Below are positions 2,968 through 30,179 of a stretch of 32,000 nt of DNA, piece after piece. Each line of letters begins with the position of its first letter. The stretch's first letter is position 1. Under the pieces are notes generated by a model, which saw only the letters and a list, made by a program, of their open reading frames with translations, was not told the DNA's origin and did not search any database. The position numbers and the translations under genes were made by a program. The DNA comes from Puniceicoccales bacterium (GTDB lineage Bacteria > Verrucomicrobiota > Verrucomicrobiia > Opitutales > JAIRLG01). Where the stretch lies: the NCBI GenBank assembly GCA_031288595.1, contig JAITRB010000007.1, forward strand, positions 30,001 through 62,000, read 5' to 3'.

Positions 2968-3068
2968 GGCTGCCGCCTTTGGTGCGGAGGGACGAGGCGG
3001 AAGCGCCTCGCCTCTCCGCACGGCCCGCGGAGCGGGCTGGAAGCCGAAGGCTTCCAAAGGCGGCGGCC
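2968..3068 (-). repeat. cloverleaf-type intergenic palindromic element, copy C (subfamily C/D)
   Basis: Closing stem 2968-2982 / 3054-3068 (14-15 bp, one G-U). It encloses a 17-bp hairpin (2983-3020, one mismatch and one G-U), an 8-bp hairpin cggcccgc-gga-gcgggctg (3021-3039) and the 6-bp/3-nt-loop hairpin gaagcc-gaa-ggcttc (3040-3054). Read on the minus strand the order is short-medium-long, as in the other copies. It lies 40 nt downstream of the recJ stop. Confidence 0.8.
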
Positions 3069-3108
3069 CAGGGATGCTTGAAGAAATCCTGGGCTGGAGT
3101 GGAATGGA

Positions 3109-4833
3109 TCAGGAGCTGGAGAGCTTCCAGTCGAGCAGCTCGCTGCGGACGGAACGGCGGCCCTGCCAGGATTCCCTCAAGAGACGGATGGCCAGGTCGA
3201 GCGAGCGCTTGGCGGGGGGGATCCTTCGGGCACCGTTCCAGTAGAGGCAGGGGAATGGGTCCTGTGCCTCACGCTTCAAGAGGAGCCGAAGGTGCTTTTT
3301 GTTCTTCCCAAATGGCTCGGCTGCCCTGTCGAGAAAGACCTGCTTCAGGGCGAAAATGGGCTCCGGATTGTCCTGACCGAAGGGGCGCAGGTTTTCCAAG
3401 TCCACCAGAAATGGCCCGTCGATGTCGTCCAATGAAAGGGTTTGGGTGATGAGCAGCTCATCCCCCTCTCTCGAAAACTTTTGCCGAAATGTCCGAACGG
3501 ATTCCTGAAAGGCTTTTTGGAAGAGCGGAACATTTTCCGGTTTGAGGGAAATGCCCACTGCCAGGGGATGGCCACCCCAGGATTCCAGCAAGGACGCACA
3601 GGGGCTCAGGATTTCGATCAGGTTGTAGCCCGCCACGCTGCGGCCAGAGCCCTTGGCTAGCCCGCGTTCCTCGCCGAGGACGATGCAGGGCCGGCGGTAG
3701 TTGCGGGCGAACTTGCCGCAGACGATACCGACGATGCCGGAGTGCCAGGCCGGGTTGGAAAAAAATATCCCGGGCAATTCTTCGCTTTGCCGGAAGAGCT
3801 CCTCCGCTTCGGCCAGAATCGCCCGCTCGATTCGCTGCCGCTCGGCGTTCATCTCGTCCAGGCTCTGGGCGAGGAGCCTCGCTTCCTCAGAATTTTCGGC
3901 GAGGAGCATCTGGACCGGTATGACCGCATCGGCCAGGCGACCACTGGCATTGATCCGTGGGCCGAGCTTGAAGGAAATGTCCTCCGGAGCGGCAGACTGA
4001 GATTCCGGTATCTGGGCGACGCGGCAGAGGGCCTCGATGCCCGGGCGCCGCTTGCAGGCGAATTCGTTCAGGCCGTAATGGGCCAGAATGCGGTTTTCCC
4101 CAAGCAGTGGGACGAGGTCGGCGATCGTTCCCATGGCGACCAGGTCCAGCTCCTGGCGGATCGAATAGCTCAGGGCGCAGGGATCCTTCTGGGCTCGCAG
4201 GTGTTTAAAAAAACCATGGATGAGCTTGAAGACCAGTCCGGCGCTGCAGAGGGAGAGCCAGGACGGATGGGCCGCCGCATCGAAGATATGGGGATTGACA
4301 AGGATGCAGTCCGCTGGCAGGGCATCGTTGGACTGATGGTGATCCAGGATCAGGACATCGATGCCTGCGGCCCGCAGGCACCGTACCTGTTCGACCGCAT
4401 TGGTGCCGCAGTCCAGGGCTATGAGCAGGCGCGGCGAGGATTTCTGTCGCAGGCGCTCGATGATTTCATCTGACATCCCGTAGCCCTCGGTGAAACGCCG
4501 AGGGATGAAGTACTGCGGCTCTAGGCCGCAGTGCCGTAGCAGGCGGACGAGCAGGGTAACGCTGGTGACGCCGTCGACGTCGTAATCGCCGATGATGCTG
4601 ATGGGCCAGTGCTCCCGGATGGCGCACTCCAGCAGATCGACCGCCTCCCGCAGATGGGTGATGGCGAAGGGATCGGTGAGCTGGGAGAGGCGGGGATGGA
4701 GAAAGTCTTCCGCCTCCTGCGGCGTCCGAATTCCTCGGGTGCTCAGGATTCTGGCGATGATAGGGTGGATAGAACGCTGGCCATAGAGCTTCGCTGCCTT
4801 TTCCTCACTCACCTTCAACCATCGCCAGTTCAC
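3109..4833 (-). CDS. recJ: single-stranded-DNA-specific exonuclease RecJ
   Basis: 574 aa with DHH-family motifs (GDYDVDGVTS, LILDHHQS) and a DHHA1-type region (GGHPLAVG). The GTG start overlaps the secDF stop by 4 nt (GTGA), consistent with translational coupling. Confidence 0.95.
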   Translation of the reverse strand: MNWRWLKVSEEKAAKLYGQRSIHPIIARILSTRGIRTPQEAEDFLHPRLSQLTDPFAITHLREAVDLLECAIREHWPISIIGDYDVDGVTSVTLLVRLLRHCGLEPQYFIPRRFTEGYGMSDEIIERLRQKSSPRLLIALDCGTNAVEQVRCLRAAGIDVLILDHHQSNDALPADCILVNPHIFDAAAHPSWLSLCSAGLVFKLIHGFFKHLRAQKDPCALSYSIRQELDLVAMGTIADLVPLLGENRILAHYGLNEFACKRRPGIEALCRVAQIPESQSAAPEDISFKLGPRINASGRLADAVIPVQMLLAENSEEARLLAQSLDEMNAERQRIERAILAEAEELFRQSEELPGIFFSNPAWHSGIVGIVCGKFARNYRRPCIVLGEERGLAKGSGRSVAGYNLIEILSPCASLLESWGGHPLAVGISLKPENVPLFQKAFQESVRTFRQKFSREGDELLITQTLSLDDIDGPFLVDLENLRPFGQDNPEPIFALKQVFLDRAAEPFGKNKKHLRLLLKREAQDPFPCLYWNGARRIPPAKRSLDLAIRLLRESWQGRRSVRSELLDWKLSSS

Positions 4834-7361: not shown

Positions 7362-7463
7362 GGTGTTTTTTTACACTGGAACAAATGCTCCCCTGTCGCC
7401 TCGCCGGATCTCTCCCCCCTGTCGAGCTTTTCATCCGCTCCTCCCTTGGGCTGGATTTTTATC

Positions 7464-7880
7464 TCATCTCTGCGCCCGCGTTCCCTCTGGTGGGGATCCA
7501 GAAGCCCTTTCCGCTTGCTGCGACAGCTTGCACTGAACGGAGGCTTTGTGGATCTCGATCTTCACGTTATCGGCGATTTTGATGACGAAACGATCCGGTC
7601 GGACGGAGACGATACTGGCATAGATCCCGGCGCTGGTCAGGATCTCGTCGCCGCTCTTCAGCTCCTGGAGCATTTGGGCGTGCTGCTTCTGTCGCTTGCG
7701 CTGGGGCGCGATCATCAGGAACCACATGCCGGCAAAGAGCAGGAGGAAGATGAGAATGGAAATGCCTCCGTTCGGCGCTGCGACCGGTACTTCCGAAATG
7801 ACCAGATGGAGATGCTTCAATCCTCTCATGCTTTGGGGAAAGCAAGGACAATCATTGCTCGAGCGCAAGAAATTTGTCAT
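7464..7880 (-). CDS. yajC: preprotein translocase subunit YajC
   Basis: A single TM helix is followed by the conserved YajC core (MIAPQRKRQKQHAQMLQELKSGDEILTSAGIYASIVSV). The gene lies immediately upstream of secDF. The start is uncertain: the internal ATG at 7829 gives a more typical 121-aa protein. Confidence 0.85.
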   Translation of the reverse strand: MTNFLRSSNDCPCFPQSMRGLKHLHLVISEVPVAAPNGGISILIFLLLFAGMWFLMIAPQRKRQKQHAQMLQELKSGDEILTSAGIYASIVSVRPDRFVIKIADNVKIEIHKASVQCKLSQQAERASGSPPEGTRAQR

Positions 7881-8023
7881 ACAGAGTCCTGATGCGAGGA
7901 ATAAAAAGAGATCTCCTCCTCTCCTGCCCTACAAGCTCGCTATCCATTGACTGCTTTCTGTTGCTTGCGGTTTAGTGAAGATTCATTACCCTTCAACAGT
8001 GGCCTGAAGTGGAGTAGGATTAT

Positions 8024-9454: not shown

Positions 9455-9546
9455 AGGCAAATCTCCGCGAGAAAAATTCTTTCGAAATAAGGACCCTAGC
9501 GCTAGATCCAGGGATCTGTAACTCTGGCTGTGCCCAGATTTTATTT

Positions 9547-10464: not shown

Positions 10465-10470
10465 GTTGTT

Positions 10471-11454: not shown

Positions 11455-11592
11455 GGAGAAAAAGGACCGAGGGTGTGTGGCTGTCTTTGGATTCCGGAGG
11501 AATCACCCACGGAGTGGGTATCCGCCAGGCTGCAGCCTGGCGGCAAAGACAGCCACAGATAGCCGGTACGAGGCCTGGGTTCTGAAACGGTA

Positions 11593-13539
<1,947 letters not shown>

Positions 13540-13717: not shown

Positions 13718-13813
13718 CTGCCGGCTTTCGATTCCCAAGGAATCTCGCCCGCTTCGCGGGCTCCCCTGAGGGCCCAGGACGTCGTCCTGGGCCCTCAGGG
13801 GGAAAGCCGGCAG
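13718..13813 (+). repeat. cloverleaf-type intergenic palindromic element, copy E (subfamily E/F)
   Basis: Perfect 12-bp closing stem ctgccggctttc / gaaagccggcag (13718-13729 / 13802-13813). It encloses gattcc-caa-ggaatc (13730-13744), gcccgc-ttc-gcgggc (13747-13761) and a perfect 18-bp hairpin (13763-13801). Confidence 0.8.
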
Positions 13814-14192: not shown

Positions 14193-14290
14193 GCCCGTTC
14201 CCCTTCTCGAGGGTATTTCTTCCTCGTTTTATCGGCGTCTCTCAAAGCGCGGGTTGACGCTGTCTCCGCTCTGGCCACGCTGGGTGCCCC

Positions 14291-14755
14291 ATGGTGGAAA
14301 TTCTCAACCGCAAGGCCTCTCACCGCTACCTGATCGGAAATACTTTTGTCGCGGGAATCGTGCTGCAGGGCACGGAGGTGAAATCCATCCGGGCCGGTAA
14401 GGCCCAGATTGCCGATGCTTTTGTCACCATCGACCGCTTGGGGAATGCCCATCTGCTCAATGCGCACATCGAGAGCTATGCCTTTGGCCATTCCCAGAAC
14501 CATCTTCCGGACCGCTCGCGCCGCCTGCTCCTGCACCGGGGGGAGATCCAGAAGCTGCGCGAGGCCATTGAGCAGGAGGGGCAGTCCGTCATCCCGCTCA
14601 AACTCTATTTCGAGCGCAGCTGGGCGAAGCTGCTGGTGGCGGTTTGTCGAGGCAAGAAGCTGCATGACAGTCGCGAATCCTTGAAGGAGAAGACGGTTCA
14701 GCGCGAGACGGAGCGCTTTCTGAAAAGGAGGATAAGCGGCGGCAGGAATGGATGA
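14291..14755 (+). CDS. smpB: SsrA-binding protein SmpB
   Basis: 154 aa with a typical SmpB sequence (NRKASHRYLIGNTFVAGIVLQGTEVKSIR ... RRLLLHRGEIQKL ... GQSVIPLKLYF) and a basic C-terminal tail. Confidence 0.95.
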   Translation: MVEILNRKASHRYLIGNTFVAGIVLQGTEVKSIRAGKAQIADAFVTIDRLGNAHLLNAHIESYAFGHSQNHLPDRSRRLLLHRGEIQKLREAIEQEGQSVIPLKLYFERSWAKLLVAVCRGKKLHDSRESLKEKTVQRETERFLKRRISGGRNG

Positions 14756-14777: not shown

Positions 14778-14805
14778 AAGACCCCGGCCCATCCGGGTCT
14801 TTTTT
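14778..14805 (+). terminator. putative intrinsic terminator after smpB
   Basis: GC-rich hairpin aagacc(c)gg-cccat-ccgggtctt with one bulged C, running into a T6 tract. It lies about 25 nt after the smpB stop. Confidence 0.55.
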
Positions 14806-15074: not shown

Positions 15075-15326
15075 ATGGCAAATAAGAAGGCATCTCTGAA
15101 AAGCATCCGCCAGGCAGCAGTGCGGACGAGGAGCAATACCAGTGCCCTGAGTCGGCTCAAGACCTTGGCGAAAAAAGTGGCCGCCCTCGCCGGAGCAGAG
15201 CCGGAGAAGAGGCGTGAGGCAGCTATTCGCTATGTCTCGGCGATGGATAAGGCTCAAAAGGTCGGCCTCATTCATGCTCACAAATCGGCCCGCTGCAAAT
15301 CCATTATGGCTGCGTATATATTTTAG
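15075..15326 (+). CDS. rpsT: 30S ribosomal protein S20
   Basis: 83 aa, very basic, with the typical S20 N-terminus MANKKASLKSIRQAAVRTRSN. Confidence 0.95.
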   Translation: MANKKASLKSIRQAAVRTRSNTSALSRLKTLAKKVAALAGAEPEKRREAAIRYVSAMDKAQKVGLIHAHKSARCKSIMAAYIF

Positions 15327-15378: not shown

Positions 15379-15411
15379 GCCCCTGGTACTCCGTACTGGG
15401 GGCATTTTTTT
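15379..15411 (+). terminator. intrinsic terminator downstream of rpsT
   Basis: 11-bp stem gcccctggtac-tcc-gtactgggggc (two G-U pairs) followed by a-ttttttt. A weaker 8-bp hairpin (15331-15355, ttaggaga...tctcctaa) lies just after the stop codon. Confidence 0.7.
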
Positions 15412-15776: not shown

Positions 15777-15861
15777 TGGTGCTCAGGAGGGGATTTGAAC
15801 CCCTACACCTTGCGGCATACGCCCCTCAAGCGTACGTGTCTACCGATTCCACCACCTGAGC
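15777..15861 (-). tRNA. tRNA-Leu (anticodon GAG), CCA encoded
   Basis: The reverse complement folds as a class II tRNA. It has a 7-bp acceptor stem (GCTCAGG/CCTGAGC) and a 3-bp D stem. The anticodon stem TACGC/GCGTA carries the loop TT-GAG-GG. There is a 13-nt variable arm, a T arm AGGGG-TTCAAAT-CCCCT, discriminator A and a terminal CCA. Confidence 0.9.
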
Positions 15862-17648: not shown

Positions 17649-18803
17649 ATGGAAGCGGGGATTCCCTATGATCGTCACCATCCCTTTGAAGCGACCCTGC
17701 TGTCCCGTCGTTCCCTCTGCCGCGGCGAAACGGAGCGGGAAGCCTATCACCTAGTTATCGATATCCGTAGGAGCCAGTGGCACTACAGCTGCGGCGATTC
17801 CTTGGCCATTTTGCCCCAAAATGATCCCAGGTGCGTGTCTGACCTCTTGCAAAGGCTCTGTCTGGAGCCATTGACCCTCATCACACTGCCGTCTTCCGGT
17901 GTTCCAAAGCCCCTGCGCTTGGTACTGGAGGAAGAGCTCTGCCTCAACCATCTCCCGAAGTCTTTCTGGGAATTTCTGCGCCGGAGGGTGGCAAAGGATG
18001 GCGAGCTTTACCGGAAAATCCCTGTTGGCGAGAGCGAGGGATGGGAGAATTTTCTCAAGAATCACACGTTGGCGAAGGCGCTGGAACTGTTTCCCGATTT
18101 TCGCTGCACGGCCCAGGAGCTAGTCGAGCATCTGCGCCCCATGCTCCCACGCCTCTACTCCATCGCCTCCGCACCGACCCTCTTCCCCGAAGAGGTTCAT
18201 CTGGCCATCGTGATGGTGAAGTACGAGGACATTTACGGAGAAAAGCGCCACGGCGTCGCCACTCGCTACCTCTCACCGGAAGGGATACCGGTCGGCGGGC
18301 GCTGCCGCTGCTTTCTCGTGCGTTCCCATTTCCGCCTTCCGGAGGACATTCGGCGTGACATGATCCTGGTCGGCCCGGGCACCGGCGTCGCACCTTTTCG
18401 CGGTTTCATCTGGGAATACGCCGCCCAGCGGGAAGCTGGGAAGGAAACAGGCCGGACCTGGCTCTTCTTTGGCAGCCTCCGAAGGCATTCCCATTTCTAT
18501 TACCAGGAAGAATGGGAGGAGCTGATGGCCCGAGGGGTTCTCACCCATTTGGACTGCGCCTTTTCCCGCGACCAGGCAGAGAAAATCTATGTCCAACATC
18601 GGCTGCTGGAGCACGGGCCGGAACTGGCCCGATGGATTTTGGGAGGAGCTCATTTCTACATCTGTGGCGACGCAAGTCACATGGCCAAGGATGTCGAGGC
18701 TGCCCTGCTCCAAATCCTGTCGGTCCATGCTCATCTGTCGGATCCCGGAGATTATTTGCGGACGATGCGCCGCGAGAAGCGTTACCAGAAGGACGTCTAT
18801 TGA
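17649..18803 (+). CDS. CysJ/CPR-type FAD- and NADPH-binding reductase (FNR-like module only, no flavodoxin domain)
   Basis: 384 aa with the FAD-binding motif RLYSIASAP, the NADPH-binding motif LVGPGTGVAPFRGF, YICGDASHMAKDVEAAL, and the family-typical C-terminus RYQKDVY. Confidence 0.85.
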   Translation: MEAGIPYDRHHPFEATLLSRRSLCRGETEREAYHLVIDIRRSQWHYSCGDSLAILPQNDPRCVSDLLQRLCLEPLTLITLPSSGVPKPLRLVLEEELCLNHLPKSFWEFLRRRVAKDGELYRKIPVGESEGWENFLKNHTLAKALELFPDFRCTAQELVEHLRPMLPRLYSIASAPTLFPEEVHLAIVMVKYEDIYGEKRHGVATRYLSPEGIPVGGRCRCFLVRSHFRLPEDIRRDMILVGPGTGVAPFRGFIWEYAAQREAGKETGRTWLFFGSLRRHSHFYYQEEWEELMARGVLTHLDCAFSRDQAEKIYVQHRLLEHGPELARWILGGAHFYICGDASHMAKDVEAALLQILSVHAHLSDPGDYLRTMRREKRYQKDVY

Positions 18804-18870
18804 GCAGCCCAGGGAAGTCCTTGTTTCCCGAGTGATGGGGCGAGGGGAACTGCGGGAGAAAGGGTGTGTG

Positions 18871-18984
18871 CCTGGCTTTGCCGCCTTGGTGACGGAGAGG
18901 GAGAGGAAAGCTTGCCTCTCCCTCTCCGTCGCGGCCCGCGGAGCGGGCCGTGGGCCCTGCGGGCCCCCAAGGCGGCAAAGCAGG
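18871..18984 (-). repeat. cloverleaf-type intergenic palindromic element, copy D (subfamily C/D)
   Basis: Closing stem 18871-18889 / 18967-18984 (18 bp with one bulged G). It encloses a perfect 16-bp hairpin (18891-18930), a perfect 8-bp hairpin cggcccgc-gga-gcgggccg (18932-18950) and gggccc-tgc-gggccc (18952-18966). It shares a 17-nt identical hairpin core with copy C. It lies 36 nt downstream of the thyX stop on the minus strand. Confidence 0.8.
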
Positions 18985-19020
18985 GACTGATCTGGGAGCT
19001 TTTAAGCCCCTGGGGCGTGC

Positions 19021-19782
19021 TTATTCGCCGTCGGGCTTTTCGGTTTTGGGAGGCTGGAACGGCGGCTTTCGGCCGCAGCTGAAGGCGGGGGATTCGAAGC
19101 AAACTCCCCATTGTTCGCAGGAGGGGCCGGCGTGGCTGAAAAGAGTAGGAGAGATATTTTGGACCCATTGCCCCATGCGCCGGGCCAGGGCACGGATTTC
19201 CCACTGGGCACGGCTACAGCAGCGGAGCTGAAGAAAGTGGAGCAGCGAGCGCGCATTGAAGGTGGCGACCAGCTTCGTCTCGGCGGCGTTGGGCAGGACA
19301 AAACGGGCATCCTCGTTTGCCGATTCCCTTTTGCATCCGCTTTTCTGCATCCGCTCGCGCAGGCGTGCATAGGTCTCGCCGGCTTGGCGCATGAAGGCCT
19401 CATAGAGCCTTTTGGCCTCTTCATCTCGGGCGATGGAGGGGGGGAGGATGTAGTCCAATTCCTCCCCTTCGGCGCAATAGCGCTGGCTCTGCTGAGAATA
19501 GGAGGCTATCCGGTGGCGGATGAGTTGGTGCGAACAGGCCCGGGAGATCCCCTCGATGGCGAAGGTGAAACTGACATGTTCCAGCGGCGAGGCATGCCCC
19601 ATCATCAGGACGTTCTGCAAAAAATGCTCCCGCTCTTCGGCGGAGATCTTTCCGGCTCTCCGCGGCTGCACGACTGTGTCCATCACGAAGCCGGAGCTGT
19701 AGCACTGCCGAAAAGCGGCGAAGACGATGTCCTCGGCGTCAGGGGTATGGGCCAGCAATTCCACGTGCAGGATTTTCCGCAT
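19021..19782 (-). CDS. thyX: FAD-dependent thymidylate synthase ThyX
   Basis: 253 aa with the ThyX signature RHRIASYSQQSQRY and the conserved N-terminal and C-terminal blocks. Confidence 0.95.
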   Translation of the reverse strand: MRKILHVELLAHTPDAEDIVFAAFRQCYSSGFVMDTVVQPRRAGKISAEEREHFLQNVLMMGHASPLEHVSFTFAIEGISRACSHQLIRHRIASYSQQSQRYCAEGEELDYILPPSIARDEEAKRLYEAFMRQAGETYARLRERMQKSGCKRESANEDARFVLPNAAETKLVATFNARSLLHFLQLRCCSRAQWEIRALARRMGQWVQNISPTLFSHAGPSCEQWGVCFESPAFSCGRKPPFQPPKTEKPDGE

Positions 19783-19878
19783 GGGCAGGTCATCTTTAGG
19801 TTCCGCTGCTCCTTGGCAAGCAGGGCTTCTTCTCTGATCCCAGAAAGGCGAAAGGAGTTTTGATTTTCGGAATTCCCC

Positions 19879-20781
19879 TCAGCGCGTCGCTTGCTGATCT
19901 TCCTTCGCCTCTTTGCCTTTTTCCCCCTTGTCCCCTCGTCCTCTTTTAGGACTCAGGCTTTGGCCGATGCTGAAGACACGCGCGGTCTCGATGCCATCCG
20001 CCTCCACGCGTCGCAGCGTGACCCGGGACTCCGGGAGATCGATGTCCGAGAGGATGTAGAGTACATTGTTGATGCTGACCGAGTCCCCGACGTTCTTGAG
20101 CACATGCGTATCGCCGGATTTCAGGGAACGGAAGACAATGGTGTGGACATTGTCGTAGAACTTCCGCTCCCGCCCCAGATCGATGTACTGTTCGGTCTCC
20201 AAATCGTAGATGGTCACGACGGGCTCCTGGAGCTTGACCCCTTCTTCCGTCTCGATGGCGATGAGCTTGAAATCCGAAACCGATATTTTGGAACTGGGAA
20301 TGGCGTGTCCCAGGGTGCAGCGAAAGGTATGCTTCTGCTGCAGATCGTTCAGCATGATGATGTAGTCCTTGTAGGAGGCCTTGGCCTTCGGCCGCTCCAG
20401 CACATAGCCCTCGAACTGGATACGGTAGGGCGTTCTCTGGAAGGAAATCAGCTCCAGCTCGAACTCCAGCGGATCGGAGACATATTCCGGAAGTTCGGCC
20501 GACAGGGTCTTGCCGATAGAGGTGATCTGCGGTGGGGTGAAGAGGTCGAAGAGCCAGGTGGGGCCTAGGGGAAGGGCCTCTGGATTCCTCCATTTCAGAT
20601 AAGGCGGCAAACGGTAGTTTAGGATCTCTTCCTTCGGCGCGGGATATTGGTGGTAATCCCCCCCTTCCAGCGAGGGGAGAACAGGTTTCGTGTCCTGGTA
20701 ATTCAGGAGAAGGTAGGCCTTGATACCTCCCAGAGTTCCCAGAGCGAGGAGTACCCACATCAGCTGTTTCCGAAACGTCAT
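19879..20781 (-). CDS. membrane-anchored hypothetical protein (PilP-position member of pilus-like cluster)
   Basis: 300 aa with a single N-terminal TM helix (LMWVLLALGTLGGIKAYLLL), a beta-rich-looking body and a Lys/Gly/Glu-rich tail. It starts 13 nt after the upstream gene of the same cluster. Confidence 0.7.
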   Translation of the reverse strand: MTFRKQLMWVLLALGTLGGIKAYLLLNYQDTKPVLPSLEGGDYHQYPAPKEEILNYRLPPYLKWRNPEALPLGPTWLFDLFTPPQITSIGKTLSAELPEYVSDPLEFELELISFQRTPYRIQFEGYVLERPKAKASYKDYIIMLNDLQQKHTFRCTLGHAIPSSKISVSDFKLIAIETEEGVKLQEPVVTIYDLETEQYIDLGRERKFYDNVHTIVFRSLKSGDTHVLKNVGDSVSINNVLYILSDIDLPESRVTLRRVEADGIETARVFSIGQSLSPKRGRGDKGEKGKEAKEDQQATR

Positions 20782-20794
20782 GATCGATCCGAAA

Positions 20795-21670
20795 TTACAT
20801 GAGTATATTTCCGGCCTGTTCGTTGAAGCCGAGCCACTCCAGGGTTAAAGTGATCCGCGAATAGCCCGAGGCCACCACGATCTTGGCGTTGTCCTTCGGG
20901 GCCAGCCGTTCCGCCGGTTTGATGGATAAGCCGCGCAGCACGAAGGGCAGCTGTTCCTTCCGCATATGGTTGATGAAGTTGCGCAGCGTCTTGCTGTAGT
21001 CCTCGAAGACGATCTGCACGCACACCGAACTCACCTTCCCCTTTGAGGAGGACAGCCGGTGGAAGCTGCTCATTGGGAAAGTATCTCCCTCGCCCTTGTT
21101 CTTGCTGTCGGAAGACAGGGCCTCGCGTTTGACCGAGATCAGGTTCATGCCGCCATCTTGGGAGGAGAAGAGCAGGCCTAATACTTTCTCCATCACGAAG
21201 GTCTGCTCCCAGAGGTCTTTCAGCGCTGTTTTGGGAGGGCTGGTATTTTTTTTGACGAAGCTCGAAAAACCGAAACTGATCTCCGTGGGATAGCGTACCC
21301 CCAGGAGGCCGGCCTGTTCTCGCATGCGCTGCTCGAAGGCCGCGACGGCGAAGAAGAAGTCGACGGTGTTTTTGGGAATCTGCTGCTCGGAGCCCAGCGT
21401 CGAGTGATCGTAATAATCCTCTAGCAGTCCATAGACCAGGAGCGCGTAGGCGTTGGCATCGCTCCGCGCCTGCATCAATGTGCGGCGACTGATGGGGGGA
21501 TCCTGCGCGAGCAACTGGGACTTAAACTGCTGCAGCTCCGCTATGAGCCCTTGCAGGGTCACTTTCAGGGATTGTTCCGCGGTGATCTGTTGCCAGAGAG
21601 AGACGACGGCTGACGCGAAGAGGAGCGTGGCTCCTAGAAAGAAACCGTGCCGTCGGAAGAATTTCATCAC
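20795..21670 (-). CDS. membrane-anchored pilus-associated protein, Amuc_1100-like / PilO-position
   Basis: 291 aa with an N-terminal TM helix, a coiled-coil-like segment and a C-terminal alpha/beta region. Its start overlaps the PilM/N-like gene's stop by 4 nt (ATGA). Position and architecture resemble the Amuc_1100 family of Verrucomicrobia; this is from my recollection, not an alignment. Confidence 0.65.
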   Translation of the reverse strand: MMKFFRRHGFFLGATLLFASAVVSLWQQITAEQSLKVTLQGLIAELQQFKSQLLAQDPPISRRTLMQARSDANAYALLVYGLLEDYYDHSTLGSEQQIPKNTVDFFFAVAAFEQRMREQAGLLGVRYPTEISFGFSSFVKKNTSPPKTALKDLWEQTFVMEKVLGLLFSSQDGGMNLISVKREALSSDSKNKGEGDTFPMSSFHRLSSSKGKVSSVCVQIVFEDYSKTLRNFINHMRKEQLPFVLRGLSIKPAERLAPKDNAKIVVASGYSRITLTLEWLGFNEQAGNILM

Positions 21671-23286
21671 AGGGCAAGAGGGGTTTCTTTGCGGAGCAGA
21701 AGGTCAAAACTGAAGGCGACGGTGTGCTCGTCCTTCACGAAGAGTTGGATATTCTGTAGCTCTTTCACGAAGGGAACTTGCTGCATGTTCTGCAGAAACT
21801 GAGCCATCTGTCGCTCAGTATGCGCTTGTCCCAGTGCTTCGGTCGTCAGCATACTTCCCCTCATCGTTATCTGGGGCGATGCGGCCTCCAGCTTCCAGTC
21901 CCATTCATCGAACCACAGGGTCTGGGCCTTAGCCGTCTGCTCCTGAAGGCTGTTGAAGAATTTCAACCAGGCATCCTGGTGGTCCACCAGCGAGCGAATG
22001 CGGTCGGCATCCTTCCGCCTCGTCGTGATCTGTTCCTTGGCGGCGGCTATCCCTTTTTCGATCTGCACGGCTTCCCGTTGAAAGGCTTTCAGTATGACGA
22101 TCTCGTGCCTGGCCGATTTGTTTTCTGTCTGCAGCAGGGACATCTCTCCGAAGAGAAGGATCGAGGCGATGAGTACAGAGGCCAGAATCCACGCTTTGCA
22201 GCGCGTGAAGTAGTAGTCCGCCTTCCAGGATGCAGGGATCATGTCCATGAAAAACGCAGAGCCCTTGCGGCGATTCCTGGTGCTGGTCATGCCGTAGGCC
22301 GCGATCAAAGAGGGCTCGAGAACGGCTTTCATTTCCTTCGGGCCCCGTCTTTCGTAGCTGAACCTAAAGTGCTCGGATGCGGGGATGACGCTCTTGCCTG
22401 CATCCGCCAATACCTTTCCCACGAAGGCGTAGGCCGACGAGTGATAGGCCCCGAGAACGGCCTGGTGATACTCCTTCCCGGACGCTTCTCGATACAGGGC
22501 GAGTTCGGCCTGTTTGAACTTTGCATGCAACTGCTGCCGCGCCTGGGCGCCACAGGCACCGGCGGCGGTGGTCGGATCGGCAGCCAGTATCTCCTGCACG
22601 ACCCGCGTATCGTCCGATATTCCCTCCCCAAGGGCAGGGATGATTTCCCTAAAACTCTTCAATAGACCCAGATGCTCGTGGGGAATGGTGCTCATCCTCG
22701 TCTTTTTTCCCTCCTGGAAGCAGAGAGTGATGACATGCGCTCCGACGTAGACGAAAAGCGTCGGGTCTTTGCAGCTCGCCTGCTCGAAGCGCAGCAGGGC
22801 CAGGAGACTATCGACAAAGACGTGCCGGACGGAGACATAGCGCTTGGCCAAGATTTCCAGCCATTTCTCCAGAAAATCCCGCTTGAGGGCGAAGCAGGGG
22901 AGGTCCTTTTCCTTGCCGAAAGCGCTGATGAAGCCCGTGATCCATTTCTCGCTTGCACCTTCGGCCTCGCGCATCGACCGCTGGAACTCGAAGTCGATGG
23001 CCTGTCGGTAATGTGGCTTTGAGATGGCGGGTATATCCAGCTGCCTGAAGGCCACAGCTTCGCTGGGCACGATGACGGAATGGATCTTCTGTCGCACGTG
23101 AAGGGGGAGTTTTTTGATCCAAGCGTCAAAGGCCCTGAGCCACTCCTCTTCGCCGTGAGTCCTGAGCTCTTGACCCCAAATGCGCGCTATGCGCCATGTG
23201 CCCAGTCTCTTTATCCAGCGCACGATGGCGAAGCACGACGCATTCCCCAGTAGGATAAACTTCTCCCTGCTCAACCCAAACCCCAT
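21667..23286 (-). CDS. fused PilM-like (actin-fold) / PilN-like protein (GspL-like architecture)
   Basis: 539 aa. A ~360-aa cytoplasmic region is followed by one TM helix (AWILASVLIASILLFG), a coiled coil and a small C-terminal domain. This is the layout of PilM plus PilN or of GspL. The nucleotide-binding motifs look degenerate. Confidence 0.65.
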   Translation of the reverse strand: MGFGLSREKFILLGNASCFAIVRWIKRLGTWRIARIWGQELRTHGEEEWLRAFDAWIKKLPLHVRQKIHSVIVPSEAVAFRQLDIPAISKPHYRQAIDFEFQRSMREAEGASEKWITGFISAFGKEKDLPCFALKRDFLEKWLEILAKRYVSVRHVFVDSLLALLRFEQASCKDPTLFVYVGAHVITLCFQEGKKTRMSTIPHEHLGLLKSFREIIPALGEGISDDTRVVQEILAADPTTAAGACGAQARQQLHAKFKQAELALYREASGKEYHQAVLGAYHSSAYAFVGKVLADAGKSVIPASEHFRFSYERRGPKEMKAVLEPSLIAAYGMTSTRNRRKGSAFFMDMIPASWKADYYFTRCKAWILASVLIASILLFGEMSLLQTENKSARHEIVILKAFQREAVQIEKGIAAAKEQITTRRKDADRIRSLVDHQDAWLKFFNSLQEQTAKAQTLWFDEWDWKLEAASPQITMRGSMLTTEALGQAHTERQMAQFLQNMQQVPFVKELQNIQLFVKDEHTVAFSFDLLLRKETPLAL

Positions 23287-23542
23287 CTCTGGAACGAGCG
23301 TATGCGTTTTCTCTGCGGCGTCAATCGTTCCTCTTTTCGTCCCTGCTTTTTTCTCAAGCCCCAGGCTCCATGATCGGCGCTCCTCTCCGGATTTTCGTTC
23401 GGGGAAAAATGCTTTATTGGAAAAAACTCCTCGGCGAAGGAGGGCTGCCCCGTCGATCTGCTCGGCGATTCCGATTCAGTGCCCCCAGTATTTTCCCTTT
23501 GTGTAGGGAGGAATTTTTCTCCATCTAGGGAGGGTGCAAGGG

Positions 23543-24769
23543 ATGGAAGAGCCTATCGTCATCACCGGAGTCGGTCTCACGGCGCCCAACGGCAATACTC
23601 TGGAAGAGTTTCGGCGCAATTTACTGGCGGGATTCAGTCGGATACAGTGGCTGGAGGTGCGCCATATGGGTCGGGTGCCGGCCGGAGTCTGCGACTTCGA
23701 TGTCTTGCGCTACCAGGGCCAAAAGGAGATCAAGAACGGTACCCGTGCGGGCAGCATCGCTCTCTACTGTGCCCATGAGGCTCTGCAGGATGCCGGCATC
23801 CTGCTTTCGGAGCGTGATCTCTCCCGAATCGGGATCTACATCGGCATCACGGAGCATGGGACGGTCGAGACGGAGAATGAGATCCATGCGCTATCGCTCT
23901 TCCACTACGACGTCCGCTACTGGTCGCACCACCACAACCCACGGACGATCGCCAACAATCCGGCCGGAGAGGTCAGCATCCAGCTCGGCATCACGGGGCC
24001 GCACTATACCCTGGGGGCCGCCTGTGCGGCCGGCAACATCGGGATCATCCAGGCGGTACAGATGCTGCGCCTCGGGGAGGTCGACCTCGCCCTGGCCGGT
24101 GGGGTCAGCGAGAGCATCCGCTCCTTCGGCATCTTCGCGGGCTTTAGGAGCCAGGGGGCGCTCGGCCATGGAGAGGATCCCAATACTGTCAGCAGGCCCT
24201 TCGACCTTGGGCGAAATGGGATCGTCATCAGCGAAGGGGGATGCCTCTACACGCTGGAGCGGCTCTCCGATGCCCGGAAGCGGAGGGCGAAGATCTATGG
24301 GGAAATTGCCGGCTACGCCATCAATTCCGATGCCGCCCATGCGGTGCTGCCCAATCCCCAGCGCCAGGCGGAGTGCGTGCGTCTGGCTCTGCGGCGAGCC
24401 CGACTGAACCCCCAGGACATCGATATCCTCAACACCCATGCGACCTCCACCATCCAGGGAGATCGGCAGGAGTGCCTCGCCGTGCGGGAAGTCTTCAGCT
24501 CCTGTCCGAAGACCTTTATCAACAACACTAAGAGCTTCATCGGCCATGCGATGGGGGCCGCCGGTGCGCTCGAGTTGGCCGGCAATCTACCGGCTTTTGA
24601 GGACCGTCAGGTCCATGCGACGATCCACATCGAGCACCTGGATCCCCAGTGCGAGTTGCCGAATCTCGTCTGCAACGAAGTGCGTTCTGTCCCCGAAGTC
24701 CGCACCATCCTTAACACCTCCTTCGGCATGCTGGGGATCAATTCCGTCGTGATCGTCCGGAAGCTCTGA
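23543..24769 (+). CDS. fabF: beta-ketoacyl-ACP synthase II family protein
   Basis: The Cys-His-His catalytic triad contexts are present: GPHYTLGAACAAG, NTHATST and GHAMGAAG. The ATG at 23543 lies 8 nt after GGGAGGG (the track ORF starts at GTG 23534). Confidence 0.9.
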   Translation: MEEPIVITGVGLTAPNGNTLEEFRRNLLAGFSRIQWLEVRHMGRVPAGVCDFDVLRYQGQKEIKNGTRAGSIALYCAHEALQDAGILLSERDLSRIGIYIGITEHGTVETENEIHALSLFHYDVRYWSHHHNPRTIANNPAGEVSIQLGITGPHYTLGAACAAGNIGIIQAVQMLRLGEVDLALAGGVSESIRSFGIFAGFRSQGALGHGEDPNTVSRPFDLGRNGIVISEGGCLYTLERLSDARKRRAKIYGEIAGYAINSDAAHAVLPNPQRQAECVRLALRRARLNPQDIDILNTHATSTIQGDRQECLAVREVFSSCPKTFINNTKSFIGHAMGAAGALELAGNLPAFEDRQVHATIHIEHLDPQCELPNLVCNEVRSVPEVRTILNTSFGMLGINSVVIVRKL

Positions 24770-24796
24770 GGGGAGAAAGGCTTGGGATCTTTAGGA

Positions 24797-24906
24797 GGAG
24801 CAATGGCCGCTTTCGGAGAAAGCTCGGCGCTTCGGCCCGAAGGGCCGGAGCGCCGTGTCTTGACTGGGCCGGCTCCGCCGGCCCAGTCAAGACAGGCCAT
24901 TGCGCC
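24797..24906 (+). repeat. cloverleaf-type intergenic palindromic element, copy A (subfamily A/B)
   Basis: Closing stem 24797-24808 / 24895-24906 (12 bp, one mismatch). It encloses gctttc-gga-gaaagc (24809-24823), a 14-bp hairpin with one G-U (24825-24855) and a perfect 18-bp hairpin (24856-24894). It starts 27 nt after the fabF-like stop. Confidence 0.85.
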
Positions 24907-24995
24907 TTACCCATTGCACCCTAGCAGGGCCTATGCTCTCTCTCCGCCATCTTTGGCCTTGCCTCCCCGAGAACTCTCCCGTAAATAAGGAAAAC

Positions 24996-25448
24996 ATGCT
25001 TGCGGACATCGAGAAGATCCGGCAACTGGCGGCGGTGATGGCGGAGGTCGGCCTTACGGAGATCGAGGTGGAGGGAGAGGGAGGCCGAATCCGCCTATCC
25101 AAACAGGCGGCTTTGACCTCAGTGGCGACCTGGCCGCCGACAGAGCTGGAATCGACGCCCTTGCCCAAGCCTTCGACGGCTTCTGGAACATCGAGTCCCT
25201 ATGGGGATTGCCGGACGATCGAATCGCCTCTGGTGGGGACTTTCTACCGCGCAGCTACGCCTGATGGGGAGGCGCTGGTCGCGCTGGGAGATCGGGTGGC
25301 AATCGGCACACCCGTCTGCATCCTAGAGGCCATGAAGGTCATGAACGAGATCCTCTCGGACGTGGAGGGGACGGTGGTCGAGATCCCCGTCCAGAATGCT
25401 GAGCCTGTGGAGTTCGGCCAGGTGCTCTTTTACATCCGGCCCGCCTGA
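24996..25448 (+). CDS. accB: acetyl-CoA carboxylase biotin carboxyl carrier protein
   Basis: The biotinylation motif EAMKVMNEI is present, with a Pro/Ala/Ser-rich linker before the lipoyl-like domain. The ATG at 24996 avoids overlap with the repeat element (the track ORF starts at 24900). Confidence 0.9.
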   Translation: MLADIEKIRQLAAVMAEVGLTEIEVEGEGGRIRLSKQAALTSVATWPPTELESTPLPKPSTASGTSSPYGDCRTIESPLVGTFYRAATPDGEALVALGDRVAIGTPVCILEAMKVMNEILSDVEGTVVEIPVQNAEPVEFGQVLFYIRPA

Positions 25449-25458
25449 GCCGCTCGCC

Positions 25459-26814
25459 ATGATCCGAAAGCTGCTCATCGCCAACCGCGGGGAAATCGCC
25501 GTCCGCATCCTGCGGGCTTGCCGGGAGATGGGCATCGAAACTCTGGCAGTCTACTCCCAAGCTGATCGCTCTTCCCTGCATGTCCAGCTGGCCGACGAAG
25601 CCATCTGCATCGGGCCAGCCGCGGCGTCTGAGAGTTACCTCCGCCTGGACCGCATCCTCAGCGCCGCTGAATTGGCCAATGCCGATGCCATCCATCCGGG
25701 CTATGGTTTTCTCTCGGAAAATCCGAACTTCGCCCAGCTCTGCGAGGACTGCCGCATTCGCTTCGTGGGGCCGAGTGCAGAGACGATTCGGCAGATGGGG
25801 GACAAGGCACGGGCCAAGGAGGTGGCCAGACGTGCCGGTGTGCCGACGGTTCCGGGTAGCGAGGGCGTCTTGGCCGATGAGGGGGAGGCCCTGGCCCTGG
25901 CGGAAAAAATAGGCTGGCCGGTTCTGCTCAAGGCGGTGGCCGGCGGCGGTGGCCGGGGCATGCGCCTTGTGTCGCGGCCGCAGGATTTGTCTCAGGACTT
26001 CCTGCTCGCCTGCCACGAAGCTGAAAGGAATTTCGGCCGTGGGGAGCTCTATCTGGAGAAGTACATCGAGGCACCGCGGCACATCGAGCTTCAAATCCTG
26101 GCCGATGCCCAGGGACACTGCGTCCACCTCGGCGAGCGCGACTGCTCCGTCCAGCGCCGCTACCAAAAGCTGATGGAAGAAGCTCCCTCTCCTTTTCTCG
26201 ATGAGCCGCTGCGCCGGCGGATGGGGGAGGCGGCCATACGCATCGCCCAGAATGCCCACTATGAGGGGGTTGGTACCGTCGAGTTCCTCGTCGATGGGCG
26301 GAAGAACTTCTACTTCATGGAGATGAATACCCGTCTCCAGGTGGAGCACGGGGTCACGGAGGAGGCGACGGGCATCGACCTCGTCCAGCAGCAGCTGCGG
26401 GTGGCGATGGGGGAGCCGCTATCCCTGCGTCAGGAGGACATTCATTTCATAGGCCATGCGCTGGAGTGCCGGATCAATGCCGAGGATCCGGAGAGGAATT
26501 TCGCACCCAGCCCGGGAAGGATTTCCCTCTACCATGCCCCGGGAGGTCCTGGCATTCGGATGGACTCATCGGTCTACGGCGGCTACGAGATCCCAACGCA
26601 CTACGACAGCCTGGTCGGCAAGCTCATAGCCACCGGAGCGACGCGGCCGGAGGCGATCCAACGCCTGGAAGGCGCGCTGGCCGAGCTGCGCCTCGAGGGC
26701 ATCGCGACGACGGCTCCTCTGGTCAGAGAGATCCTGCGAGACGAGGATTTCCGCGAGGGCCGTGTGACGACCCATTTTCTCCAAAACTTTCTCGGGCGCA
26801 GCCGCAGCGCCTGA
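25459..26814 (+). CDS. accC: acetyl-CoA carboxylase biotin carboxylase subunit
   Basis: The N-terminus MIRKLLIANRGEIAVRILRACREMGI, the ATP-grasp motif GGGGRGMRLV and EMNTRLQVEH are present. The ATG at 25459 lies 10 nt after the accB stop. Confidence 0.95.
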   Translation: MIRKLLIANRGEIAVRILRACREMGIETLAVYSQADRSSLHVQLADEAICIGPAAASESYLRLDRILSAAELANADAIHPGYGFLSENPNFAQLCEDCRIRFVGPSAETIRQMGDKARAKEVARRAGVPTVPGSEGVLADEGEALALAEKIGWPVLLKAVAGGGGRGMRLVSRPQDLSQDFLLACHEAERNFGRGELYLEKYIEAPRHIELQILADAQGHCVHLGERDCSVQRRYQKLMEEAPSPFLDEPLRRRMGEAAIRIAQNAHYEGVGTVEFLVDGRKNFYFMEMNTRLQVEHGVTEEATGIDLVQQQLRVAMGEPLSLRQEDIHFIGHALECRINAEDPERNFAPSPGRISLYHAPGGPGIRMDSSVYGGYEIPTHYDSLVGKLIATGATRPEAIQRLEGALAELRLEGIATTAPLVREILRDEDFREGRVTTHFLQNFLGRSRSA

Positions 26815-26823
26815 TGGCTCACC

Positions 26824-28239: not shown

Positions 28240-28270
28240 GAACAGCATTCCTCAGGGATGGTATTTTGGG

Positions 28271-28372
28271 GGCGCAATGGCCGCTTTCGGAGAAAGCCCT
28301 CCCCGGGCGCGGCCGCGCCCGGAGGTTCGTCCTAGTGCCGGCAAAGCCGGCGCCAGGACGGGCCATTGCGCC
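28271..28372 (+). repeat. cloverleaf-type intergenic palindromic element, copy B (subfamily A/B)
   Basis: Perfect 12-bp closing stem ggcgcaatggcc / ggccattgcgcc. The first hairpin is identical to copy A (28283-28297). The second hairpin spans 28298-28325 (5+6 bp with a 2-nt bulge). The third spans 28328-28360 (15 bp, one mismatch and one G-U). It starts 31 nt after the der stop. Confidence 0.85.
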
Positions 28373-28505
28373 TTGCGATGAGAAACAGACCATGCATTTT
28401 CGCTTTTGCCTCGGACATGAAAATGAGTATTTTCTCCTATTGACAGTGCGGGCGAGGTTATAAGTTCGCGCATCCTTCGAATAGCCGCATTCCATCTATG
28501 AGCTA

Positions 28506-30065
28506 ATGGCCAGACAGATTCTTTTCTTCTCCGTGACTGTACTACTGGGAGGGAGTCCGCTGATGGCGGCGGGAATATCGAGTCCGAGGGTGCTGCGCTG
28601 GGCAGCAAATCCGGAAAGCGGACCACCTTATGCGTTTTTTTCCTGGAAGCAATCCTCGAAGCGAGTCAACGGGATGGATGCCGATGTGATTCGGGAAGTG
28701 GCCAAACGCCTGGGCTGCGAGGAGCGCTTCTACATCAATGACTGGGACAACCTGATCCCAGGCCTGCGCCGTGGGCTCTACGACGTCGTGATCAATGGTA
28801 TTGTCGCGCCGGAACGGCCGATGCCCGGGGTGATCTTTACCCGGCCCTATTTTCGCGGAACGCGCCAGCTGGTCATCCGGCGGGATGAGGAAAAAATCGT
28901 CAACCTGGCAACGGCCCAGGGCTATCGGGTGGGCCTCATTCCGGACGCATGTACGCATGAGCTATTGGAGGCCTATCCCGGGATCAAGCTGCTGTACTAC
29001 ACCGACGAGTACGAGGTGTTCTTCGACCTCAAGCGCGGGCAGATCGACGCCATCCTGATGGATAGCCCTGGTGTGCTCTACCACAGCTCGATCCAAGCAG
29101 ATACGCGGGTGCTCGAGGAAGCGGTGGTGGAGCTGGAGTACGTCATGGCGCTGCGGGCCGAGGATGGCGAGTGGCTGGAGAGGATCAATCGAGCGTTGGA
29201 GGAGATGAAGGCCGACGGCAGCCTCTTGGCCATCATGCGCTACTGGGGACTCTGCCAAAAACCCTTCTGCCAGATGCTGGGTATACCGGAAGAACCGCTT
29301 CCGGAATTGGCATCTGTCCCGGGCTACAGGCAATTTCTGGAAAACGTTCAGTCGCCCACATCCTGGCAGGAGTTCACCGAGCGTTACCGGAAGATTTTGC
29401 CCCTGCTGGGCCAGGCGGCGCTGATCACCCTGGAGCTCTCCATCGTGTCGATGGGTATTGCGGTGCTGCTGGGCCTCCTGCTGGCCCTGCTGCGGCTCTA
29501 CGCACCACTTGCCATCCGATGGCTGGCCATTCTGTGGATCGAATTCCTGCGTGGCACACCGCTGCTGATCCAACTCTTCTTCATCTTCTACGGCCTGCCC
29601 TTCATAGGCATTTCCCTGCCGCCCTTTTGGGCAGCGGTTCTGGCCCTGGGACTGAACTACTCCGCCTTCGAAGCGGAGAACTATCGGGCGGGCCTGTCCT
29701 CGGTCCCCCGGGCCCAGATGGAGGCCGCCAGGGCCCTGGGCATGACCCAGTTCCAGGCTCTGCGCCACGTAATTGTCCCCCAGGCCTTTTCCTTCGTCCT
29801 GCCGCCCATGACCAATGATTTCATAGCCCTTTTGAAGGATTCCTCTCTGGCCTCGCTGGTCACGATGGTCGAGCTGACCAAGACCTATGCCCTCCTGGCC
29901 AATTCCTATTTCGATTTCTTCGGTACCGGTCTGGTGGTGGCCCTGGTCTACCTCCTCATCGGTCTGCCCTTTTCCTATCTCGCCCATTTGGCGGAGCGCT
30001 ACATGTCCCTGGAAAAACAGGCCTATCGAGGAGTATATGCGCGGCGGAGGAGGAATCGGGGCTAG
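28506..30065 (+). CDS. amino-acid ABC transporter, fused periplasmic substrate-binding protein and permease
   Basis: 519 aa with a signal peptide and a family-3 solute-binding domain (~250 aa). This is followed by a HisM/GlnP-type permease (FLRGTPLLIQLFFIFYGLP; EAA loop ARALGMTQFQALRHVIVPQA). Confidence 0.9.
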   Translation: MARQILFFSVTVLLGGSPLMAAGISSPRVLRWAANPESGPPYAFFSWKQSSKRVNGMDADVIREVAKRLGCEERFYINDWDNLIPGLRRGLYDVVINGIVAPERPMPGVIFTRPYFRGTRQLVIRRDEEKIVNLATAQGYRVGLIPDACTHELLEAYPGIKLLYYTDEYEVFFDLKRGQIDAILMDSPGVLYHSSIQADTRVLEEAVVELEYVMALRAEDGEWLERINRALEEMKADGSLLAIMRYWGLCQKPFCQMLGIPEEPLPELASVPGYRQFLENVQSPTSWQEFTERYRKILPLLGQAALITLELSIVSMGIAVLLGLLLALLRLYAPLAIRWLAILWIEFLRGTPLLIQLFFIFYGLPFIGISLPPFWAAVLALGLNYSAFEAENYRAGLSSVPRAQMEAARALGMTQFQALRHVIVPQAFSFVLPPMTNDFIALLKDSSLASLVTMVELTKTYALLANSYFDFFGTGLVVALVYLLIGLPFSYLAHLAERYMSLEKQAYRGVYARRRRNRG

Positions 30066-30075
30066 GGATCCACTG

Positions 30076-30179
30076 GGGCCGGCTTTCGATGCCGGAGGCA
30101 TCGCTGCCCCCCGCGGCTTGCGCCGCGGGGGGCGGCCAAGAGGGAAAGCCAGGGAGCTTTCCCCTTGGAAAGCCGGCCC
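30076..30179 (+). repeat. cloverleaf-type intergenic palindromic element, copy F (subfamily E/F)
   Basis: Perfect 12-bp closing stem gggccggctttc / gaaagccggccc. It encloses gatgcc-gga-ggcatc (30088-30102), a 15-bp hairpin with one G-U (30103-30136) and a 12-bp hairpin with one bulge (30137-30167). It starts 10 nt after the ABC transporter stop. Confidence 0.8.

Follow-up and report, generated by a model that had tools for sequence, protein, structure and literature searches.

The stretch analysed here, 32,000 nucleotides of contig JAITRB010000007.1 (positions 30,001 to 62,000 of the forward strand; hereafter the window), comes from an uncultured bacterium of the Puniceicoccales (Opitutia, Verrucomicrobiota), of a termite-gut type. 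Its genes, annotated with Pfam and NCBIfam, include recJ, a clpX-like gene, smpB, rpsT, thyX, fabF, der and an ABC substrate-binding protein (SBP)-permease gene, and in the spaces between them lies a family of repeats which fold as cloverleaves. Reading and folding the intergenic regions gave seven copies, all intergenic. An initial annotation of the same DNA had counted six: of the copies at 11476–11557 (+) and 13718–13813 (+), both of which exist, it had included one only, as 'E'. Its remark that no copy interrupts a coding region was right, as all seven lie clear of supported genes.

All seven copies are built on the same plan. A closing stem of 9–15 bp encloses three hairpins (H1, H2 and H3) that directly abut it, leaving 0–3 unpaired nucleotides at the junction. 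H1, with 6–7 bp and a 3-nt loop, is the hairpin beside the 5′ arm of the closing stem; the helix of H2 counts 6–15 bp, and that of H3, the most variable of the three, 9–19 bp. The elements measure 80–115 nt, their minimum free energies lie between −56 and −97 kcal/mol, and their folding z-scores against dinucleotide shuffles between −6.3 and −11.9. A strict scanner, written for the architecture of a closing stem and three hairpins, recovers exactly these seven copies in the window; roughly 330 kb from more distant Opitutales gave it no match. The elements are real, far beyond chance. Searching the window with all 4227 families of Rfam 15 (E ≤ 1) gave a single match, a tRNA-Leu at 15777–15861, and ARAGORN gave the same answer. 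Readings as tRNA-like molecules, ribozymes or retron-like elements were dropped, the junctions having essentially no conserved unpaired nucleotides and the elements no associated genes.

The nearest relatives of the source bacterium are metagenome-assembled genomes from the same kinds of samples, and about 130 kb of DNA of its clade was obtained via homologues of Der and SecDF. One relative belongs to the same species as the window (L001); four have a Der or SecDF 85–90% identical (L002, L033, L037, L041), two 71–78% (L039, L042) and five 63–75%, with a GC content of 46–49% (L034, L035, L036, L038, L040). Comparison of the loci of these relatives, and of the 330 kb of distant Opitutales DNA, shows the elements to be confined to the clade. 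A metagenome scan with the subfamily 2 pattern (see below) returned four unrelated contigs, all devoid of elements, and scans of viral contigs found nothing. Local density is high, with seven copies per 32 kb in the window and nine per 13.7 kb in L033, from which hundreds of copies per genome are plausible. Several related contigs start or end inside an element (L033 1–104, L002 1–60, L035 1–92, L037 10100–10176); thus the repeats break short-read assemblies, an indirect support for a high copy number.

Table 1. Cloverleaf repeats of the window: position, neighbouring genes, component sequences and copies at the same place in relatives
Element	Position	Strand	Subfamily	Gene context	Parts	Orthologous copies
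C	2968–3068	−	3	co-directional region; 40 nt past recJ stop, sense	(minus strand) closing stem GCCGCCTTTG/CAAAGGCGGC; H1 GAAGCC-ttc-GGCTTC; H2 CAGCCCGC-tcc-GCGGGCC; H3 long, purine-rich	
#2	11476–11557	+	divergent relative of 2	35 nt past clpX-like stop, antisense; 21 nt before SurA-like gene start	smallest copy; closing stem TGTGGCTGTCTTTG/CAAAGACAGCCACA; H1 GATTCC-gga-GGAATC; H2 ACCCAC-gga-GTGGGT; H3 CCGCCAGGCTG..CCTGGCGG	
#3	13718–13813	+	2	divergent region between clpX-like gene and smpB	closing stem CTGCCGGCTTTC/GAAAGCCGGCAG; H1 GATTCC-caa-GGAATC; H2 GCCCGC-ttcg-GCGGGC; H3 perfect, 18–19 bp; T-run just 5′	
D	18871–18985	−	3	convergent region; 35–36 nt past thyX stop; 67 nt past stop of plus-strand reductase gene		L034/L035, L001
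A	24796–24907	+	1	26–27 nt past fabF stop, sense	closing stem GCAATGGCC/GGCCATTGC; H1 GCTTTC-gga-GAAAGC; H2 14 bp; H3 18 bp	L002, L033, L034, L035, L036
B	28268–28375	+	1	28–31 nt past der stop, sense	closing stem and H1 as in A; H2 and H3 unrelated to those of A	L002 (partial), L033
F	30075–30180	+	2	9–10 nt past ABC SBP-permease gene stop, sense	closing stem GGGCCGGCTTTC/GAAAGCCGGCCC; H1 GATGCC-gga-GGCATC	L033

Three subfamilies can be told apart. Subfamily 1 (A and B) has the closing stem GCGCAATGGCC and an H1 of the form GCTTTC-gga-GAAAGC. Subfamily 2 (F and #3, with #2 as a divergent relative) has the closing stem GGGGCYGGCTTTC, an H1 GATKCC-nnn-GGMATC and often an H2 GGCCCGC-nnn-GCGGGCC. 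Subfamily 3 (C and D) combines the closing stem GCCGCCTTKG with an H1 GRRSCC-ttc-GGSYYC, an H2 GGCCCGC-tcc-GCGGGCC and a purine-rich H3. Within subfamilies the cores of the closing stems are conserved (CCGCCTTTG/CAAAGGCGG, GCCGGCTTTC/GAAAGCCGGC, GCAATGGCC/GGCCATTGC) and make up terminal inverted repeats. That the copies form one family of structured intergenic repeats with a definable polarity, as first proposed, is borne out by the shared architecture and by a covariance model which links the subfamilies: built from subfamily 3 only, it matches copies of subfamily 2 at 36–81 bits, in the assigned polarity, and it finds no match outside the clade. The polarity had been defined by the short H1 arm lying beside the 5′ strand of the closing stem. 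This definition is sound, because the model scores the opposite strand 30–50 bits lower (80.6 bits on the minus strand of C against 35.2 on the plus strand; 67 on the plus strand of #3 against 22 on the minus strand), and it holds in all seven copies of the window and in about 22 related ones.

An independent mark of polarity is a T-run found just 5′ of the closing stem in most copies of subfamilies 1 and 2. It often reads GGGATCTTTT or TTTTGGGG, and was seen at A, B and #3 as well as at L002 3853, L033 7724, L033 12270, L034 7956 and L037 5626. It is present in copies of both orientations relative to the genes around them, and no A-run matches it on the 3′ side; read in one direction or the other, the arrangement is not that of a terminator. 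A CAGCTCT-like motif occurs in some of the 3′ flanks. A different, smaller cloverleaf stands at the very end of a contig, 96 nt after recJ (L037 10100–10176), with three hairpins of 15–18 nt within a 13-bp stem (GGGGCCCCGGGAC); it fits none of the three subfamilies and may be a member of a fourth.

Where these elements lie with respect to genes was the central point of the initial annotation, the coordinates and stop distances of which are correct (Table 1). Five of the window copies occupy co-directional intergenic regions, one a convergent and one a divergent region. Among the co-directional copies four are in sense, 9–40 nt past the stop; the orientation of D is uninformative since, with convergent genes on its flanks, it is sense to one neighbour either way. 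If seven copies are inserted at random, in random orientation, into the emptied intergenic regions, at least five of them fall in sense within 44 nt of a stop with a probability of 0.0003, and of 0.002 if each copy is re-placed within its own intergenic region, the threshold of 44 nt having been picked with the data in view. For orientation by itself, P = 0.11. It is therefore closeness to the stop that stands out in the window, not polarity. Measured against the G-rich (putative leading) strand, the copies split 5:2 in the window and 5:4 in L033, which is no signal. The elements are not canonical intrinsic terminators, as had been recognized: none of the seven has a 3′ T-tract, and a terminator scan flags none of them. 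Hairpins followed by a T-tract do occur on the plus strand at 14783–14797 and 15379–15403, after smpB (14291–14755) and rpsT (15075–15326, identified as S20 by NCBIfam), so that ordinary intrinsic terminators are used alongside the cloverleaf repeats.

The relatives allowed the question of orientation to be put to a larger sample. A census of about 30 copies with gene context, orthologous copies being counted once, comprises 11 independent co-directional sites; it is small, drawn from regions syntenic with the window, and rests in part on automatic gene calls. Seven sites are sense (after recJ, fabF, der, the ABC gene and, in L002, accC, together with a second copy after the ABC gene in L033 and a second one after yajC in L041). 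Four are antisense (#2, a subfamily 1 copy after yajC in L037 and L041, and the recJ and 4HBT sites of L038), those of the relatives lying between yajC and secDF, recJ and GT8, and 4HBT and TLC. Seven of eleven does not differ from one half (two-sided binomial P of about 0.55), and two nested subfamily 2 copies, beyond this count, are both antisense. Others lie in divergent regions (#3, L033 1–228). The bias towards sense orientation past stop codons is thus not supported: an antisense copy had gone uncounted, D says nothing, and antisense copies occur in the relatives and in nests. Nor is there support for a polarity that would point to a strand-specific role in RNA or an oriented preference for insertion. 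Between an element and the upstream stop lie 0 to 874 nt, and six of ten independent sites are within 44 nt (four sense, two antisense). Closeness to stop codons consequently has modest support, irrespective of orientation; the sense polarity has none.

The same relatives show that copies of the family turn over and that the family is old. Insertion polymorphism is present at three places. In the accC–der spacer, L002 has a subfamily 2 copy within 395 nt, where the window and L033 have 9–19 nt only; between yajC and secDF there are copies in L037 and L041, none in the window; downstream of the ABC gene a second copy exists in L033 only, a contig that also carries a copy in the convergent region after atpC. 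Filled and empty versions of the yajC–secDF region (window against L037) and of the accC–der region are not alignable, and the boundaries of insertion were not recovered. Elements also nest. H3 of the fabF element in L002 and L033, and likewise H3 of the der element in L033, holds a complete, inverted subfamily 2 cloverleaf; in the window, the same two places show a simple hairpin with the closing-stem sequence of subfamily 2 (..GCCGGC nnn GCCGGC..). The places in question are 24856–24894 and 28325–28357 in the window, 1500–1680 in L002, and 1655–1810 and 5415–5570 in L033. The difference between the H3 without interior and the H3 with a nested copy can be either filling or collapse. Two paralogues of L038 (at 3888 and 7259) are 93% identical across the core CCGCCTTTG...CAAAGGCGG, and their homology ends there: the bases just outside differ between the two copies yet pair with each other, and the aligned flanks of this pair show no direct target-site duplication.

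Change is visible even over the shortest distance. L001 and the window are 99.89% identical over 7.5 kb (window 18688–26225), with five differences, one of which, a 4-nt indel with a substitution, falls at the H3 apex of D (window 18907–18916): the window has AAAGCTTG where L001 has AAAA, and the window form extends the palindrome. At the other end of the scale, a copy downstream of fabF is found in all six genomes from which this spacer was recovered, including lineages with a Der only 63% identical and a GC content of 47%. Its closing stem is kept, with one compensatory change from A-T to G-C, and so is H1; the sequences of H2 and H3 are entirely different, still paired. The copy downstream of thyX is likewise conserved across lineages with 63% Der identity and a GC content of 47% against 59–65%. 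From the persistence of these two copies it follows that the family is old in the clade and has expanded in its high-GC branch. Persistence of this kind fits the vertically inherited, REPIN-like populations that have been reported (bioRxiv 10.1101/2021.07.10.451892).

The way in which the helices vary tells something about the level at which they are maintained. An RNA under strand-specific selection is expected to gather wobble pairs and tetraloops. Here, G-U pairs make up about 1% of the pairs of the co-directional copies, ten on the sense and eight on the antisense strand for about 750 pairs per strand, and neither folding energy nor G-U pairs show any asymmetry between strands that would mark selection on RNA. 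In the alignment of subfamily 3, 19 of 37 pairs have double compensatory changes, with about 45 double changes against four one-sided cells. Nearly all loops have 3 nt and are closed by C-G; with the arms taken in the same order, subfamily 3 has loop triplets (TTC, TCC) complementary to the GGA and GAA of subfamilies 1 and 2. The Watson–Crick symmetry, the double changes and the triloops are thus characteristic of DNA palindromes of which the two strands are kept symmetric. Template switching is known to create and maintain perfect hairpins, to homogenize and expand the arms of inverted repeats and to invert their spacers (PMC8794818, PMC8604942, PMC13100816); it would yield such 'compensatory' patterns without any selection at the level of RNA.

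The cloverleaf repeats are, in our opinion, probably a lineage-restricted, modular family of REP/MITE-like DNA repeats with an unusual four-way-junction fold, propagated at the level of DNA. Homologous copies occur across loci and genomes; they are gained or lost between close relatives, nest in one another, lie in both orientations and persist at the same site for long. Structurally, a conserved inverted-repeat core forms the closing stem around two fairly conserved short hairpins and a hypervariable long one, so that each of the two DNA strands, like its RNA copy, folds into the four-way junction. Spread of the family and upkeep of its perfect self-complementarity would then be the work of DNA-level processes, candidates being mobilization in trans by some enzyme, gene conversion between copies, and template switching that may homogenize arms and invert loops. 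Copies might accumulate between genes, shortly after stop codons, because at such places an insertion would leave both the coding part and the following gene's promoter intact. Those that are transcribed should form very stable 3′ structures in either orientation, and could protect or attenuate transcripts as do the REPs of E. coli, as a side-effect or as a co-opted role devoid of strand specificity.

Several facts weigh against this interpretation. Domain annotation reveals no transposase or RAYT gene among the genes of the 32 kb, and the aligned flanks show neither target-site duplication nor a GTAG or CGTC tag. The fabF copy is fixed, in sense, 10–35 nt past the stop in six genomes, and the der and ABC copies are fixed as well; fixation at a site could be due to selection for a local function and not to passive residence. 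Even where the genome has only 47% GC, H1, H2 and the core of the closing stem remain rich in GC, which suggests a sequence-specific constraint, for example a binding protein. The census, moreover, amounts to only about 30 copies and 11 independent co-directional sites of window-syntenic regions.

Alternatively, as in the first option of the initial annotation, the copies might be strand-specific, cis-acting elements of mRNA 3′ ends, barriers to exonucleases or factor-dependent terminators or attenuators, selected in sense 10–40 nt past stops. The four sense copies among the five co-directional ones of the window would fit this role, as would the constancy of position and orientation of the fabF, der and ABC copies in relatives, the extreme stability of the structures and the compensatory changes from A-T to G-C in the fabF closing stem. 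However, antisense copies keep a similar spacing (35 nt for #2, 42 nt for L038 7259), and further ones are found elsewhere (L037 5626, L038 3888, the nested copies), and copies in divergent regions and the broad range of stop distances also speak against such a role. The helices, furthermore, are Watson–Crick whichever strand is read, without a surplus of G-U pairs in sense, and end in triloops, not in the stable tetraloops typical of RNA; ordinary intrinsic terminators are present in the organism, and Rfam offers no match. We find this explanation unlikely.

One may also imagine, refining the second option of the initial annotation, a mobile element with a true preference for insertion just past stops, such as homing into terminator-like hairpins or into the centres of palindromes. 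Paralogues have different outer extensions of the closing stem, which are complementary all the same, with no direct duplication, as if the core had landed in the middle of a palindrome; at two loci a subfamily 2 copy is placed exactly at the apex of another element's H3; and six of ten independent sites are within 44 nt of a stop, whatever the orientation. Yet the yajC–secDF and accC–der regions, which do not align, yielded no empty site bearing a matching hairpin; homogenization by template switching explains variable but complementary outer stems equally well; no T-tract follows the elements, though one would be expected after insertion into the loop of a terminator; and no enzyme is known for homing of this kind. 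A preference of this sort is doubtful. We would give a similarly small chance to a self-nesting, palindromic mobile DNA, of which a core of about 95 nt would be inserted or copied into the apices of existing hairpins, as a folded single-stranded four-way junction handled by a structure-specific enzyme, with the 5′ T-run as cleavage or target motif. Insertion at apices would lead to recursive palindromes, to complementary flanks without direct duplication and to subfamily 2 copies at the H3 apex at two loci.

Much less probable is that the repeats are DNA sites bound by a protein of structural or topological function and maintained for chromosome organization, in the way that BIMEs serve gyrase and IHF, the potential to form hairpins being incidental to a dyad-symmetric recognition. 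The sequence conservation of the GC-rich H1, H2 and closing-stem cores even at 47% GC, the strand-symmetric Watson–Crick character and the independence from orientation would agree with it. But H3 and the outer stems are hypervariable and nevertheless perfectly paired, a pairing for which a duplex binding site has no need; nesting and turnover in copy number are unexpected for organizational sites, and no direct evidence of any kind speaks for this proposal. That the elements are independent genes for trans-acting small RNAs, tRNA-like or Y-RNA-like cloverleaves, is scarcely credible, in spite of a four-helix shape with a long closing stem, as ARAGORN and Rfam give the true tRNA-Leu only, the junctions are almost without unpaired nucleotides, the loops are not conserved, and copies have no associated promoter or terminator signals and occur in both orientations, inside the spacers of operons.

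Other features of the region deserve mention. The clpX-like open reading frame (ORF; 11593–13539, minus strand) contains two perfect inverted repeats, one of 13 bp with a 3-nt spacer at 11906–11934 (CGGGAATCGGTGG gga CCACCGATTCCCG), in the C-terminal extension of the protein, the other of 10 bp at 13332–13354 (TTCCGGAAAC ttt GTTTCCGGAA), in its N-terminal extension. A perfect repeat of 13 bp is far beyond chance in 32 kb, and both could be in-frame remnants of hairpin-type repeats. The protein has 648 residues, of which the ClpX model covers 180–526 only; the extensions (about 180 residues at the N-terminus and 120 at the C-terminus) are of low complexity and match no family. Further on, atpG and atpD (window 30405–32000) follow the ABC transporter gene, not atpA, and in L033 (7945–12127) an ORF of 416 codons, without family match, separates atpD from atpC, so that the clade seems to have a split or rearranged atp operon. 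A cluster of three ORFs without Pfam domains (19879–23286, minus strand), some with weak matches to the pilus-associated Amuc_1100 and Amuc_1101 (PilM-like) of Akkermansia, is kept beside thyX in relatives. Finally, the Der homologue of L042 (P0004, 1340–3016) is called with 558 residues against about 470 in relatives, on a contig that has 79 Ns, and this is probably an artefact of assembly or gene calling near a repeat.

If the cloverleaf repeats are everywhere as abundant as they are locally, with one copy per 2–5 kb, they would account for several percent of the intergenic DNA of the clade, and they break metagenome assemblies at predictable places. A polarity in sense past stop codons, which the evidence does not support, would have pointed to a new 3′-end signal in RNA. 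What the family offers is a clean example, made by nature, of multi-branched palindromes, very long and perfectly paired, that change their sequence and keep their shape. It is thereby a useful system to separate selection at the level of RNA from the maintenance of hairpins by template switching in DNA, and a place to look for a mechanism of mobilization that does not involve RAYTs.

It remains to compare the family with known systems. REP/RAYT-type biology, which the initial annotation had in mind, is the natural comparison, location and density being REP-like. The REP, BIME and REPIN sequences of E. coli and Pseudomonas, and the GTAG repeats of Opitutus terrae, are, as here, GC-rich palindromic intergenic repeats of high density (PMC3733652, PMC3116915). 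REP-type repeats are found mainly downstream of ORFs, between unidirectional and convergent ones, so that proximity to stop codons is not in itself new (PMC3733652); the cloverleaf repeats of the window, in five co-directional, one convergent and one divergent region, follow the same rule. As with REPs, subfamilies coexist in one genome, copies cluster in opposite orientations (L033 1–104 and 113–228), vertical persistence is long, and stable RNA structures are expected upon transcription. Differences are as marked. A REP is a single stem-loop of 20–40 nt or a doublet, unlike the cloverleaf unit of 80–115 nt and four helices; and in REP doublets pairing joins two inverted REPs, where each cloverleaf hairpin is complementary to itself. 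A GTAG/CTAC tag is not conserved in the boundary-aligned flanks of about 29 copies, and CGTC is confined to the H3 foot of B and of the elements that host nested copies.

Bacterial MITEs (Correia/NEMIS, ERIC, RUP, bcr1, Nezha) share with the cloverleaf repeats a length of about 100 nt and conserved inverted repeats at the two ends, the pairing of which makes a closing stem (PMC2229807, PMC3184786). Presence and absence differ among relatives in both, and both adjoin genes with which they are likely to be co-transcribed. The cloverleaf repeats depart from MITEs in having no direct target-site duplication and no known parent insertion sequence, in an interior of three perfect hairpins the sequence of which may be fully replaced and still pair, and in the nesting of copies at hairpin apices. 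The BOX elements of Streptococcus pneumoniae have boxA and boxC ends around a variable boxB, and the modular interior of the cloverleaf repeats is BOX-like. Intrinsic terminators also place a GC-rich structure soon after a stop, but end in a 3′ T-tract, whereas the cloverleaf repeats have four helices and a T-run, if any, 5′ of the structure.

Hairpins shaped by template switching and quasipalindrome correction resemble the cloverleaf repeats in another way, their arms being perfectly Watson–Crick despite changes in sequence (PMC8794818, PMC8604942, PMC13100816). The complementary loop triplets of subfamily 3, set against those of subfamilies 1 and 2, fit an inversion of the spacer, near-identical strains differ by an indel at a hairpin apex, and palindromes appear to extend outward. 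Template switching is, however, a local mutational process, which alone cannot explain homologous copies dispersed over many loci. In searches of the literature, no repeat with four helices like the present one was seen to be described. As the family has neither the short single palindrome and the GTAG/CGTC tag of REPs nor the direct target-site duplication of MITEs, and is neither an intrinsic terminator nor a match to any Rfam family, we do not file it as a member of any that has been named.

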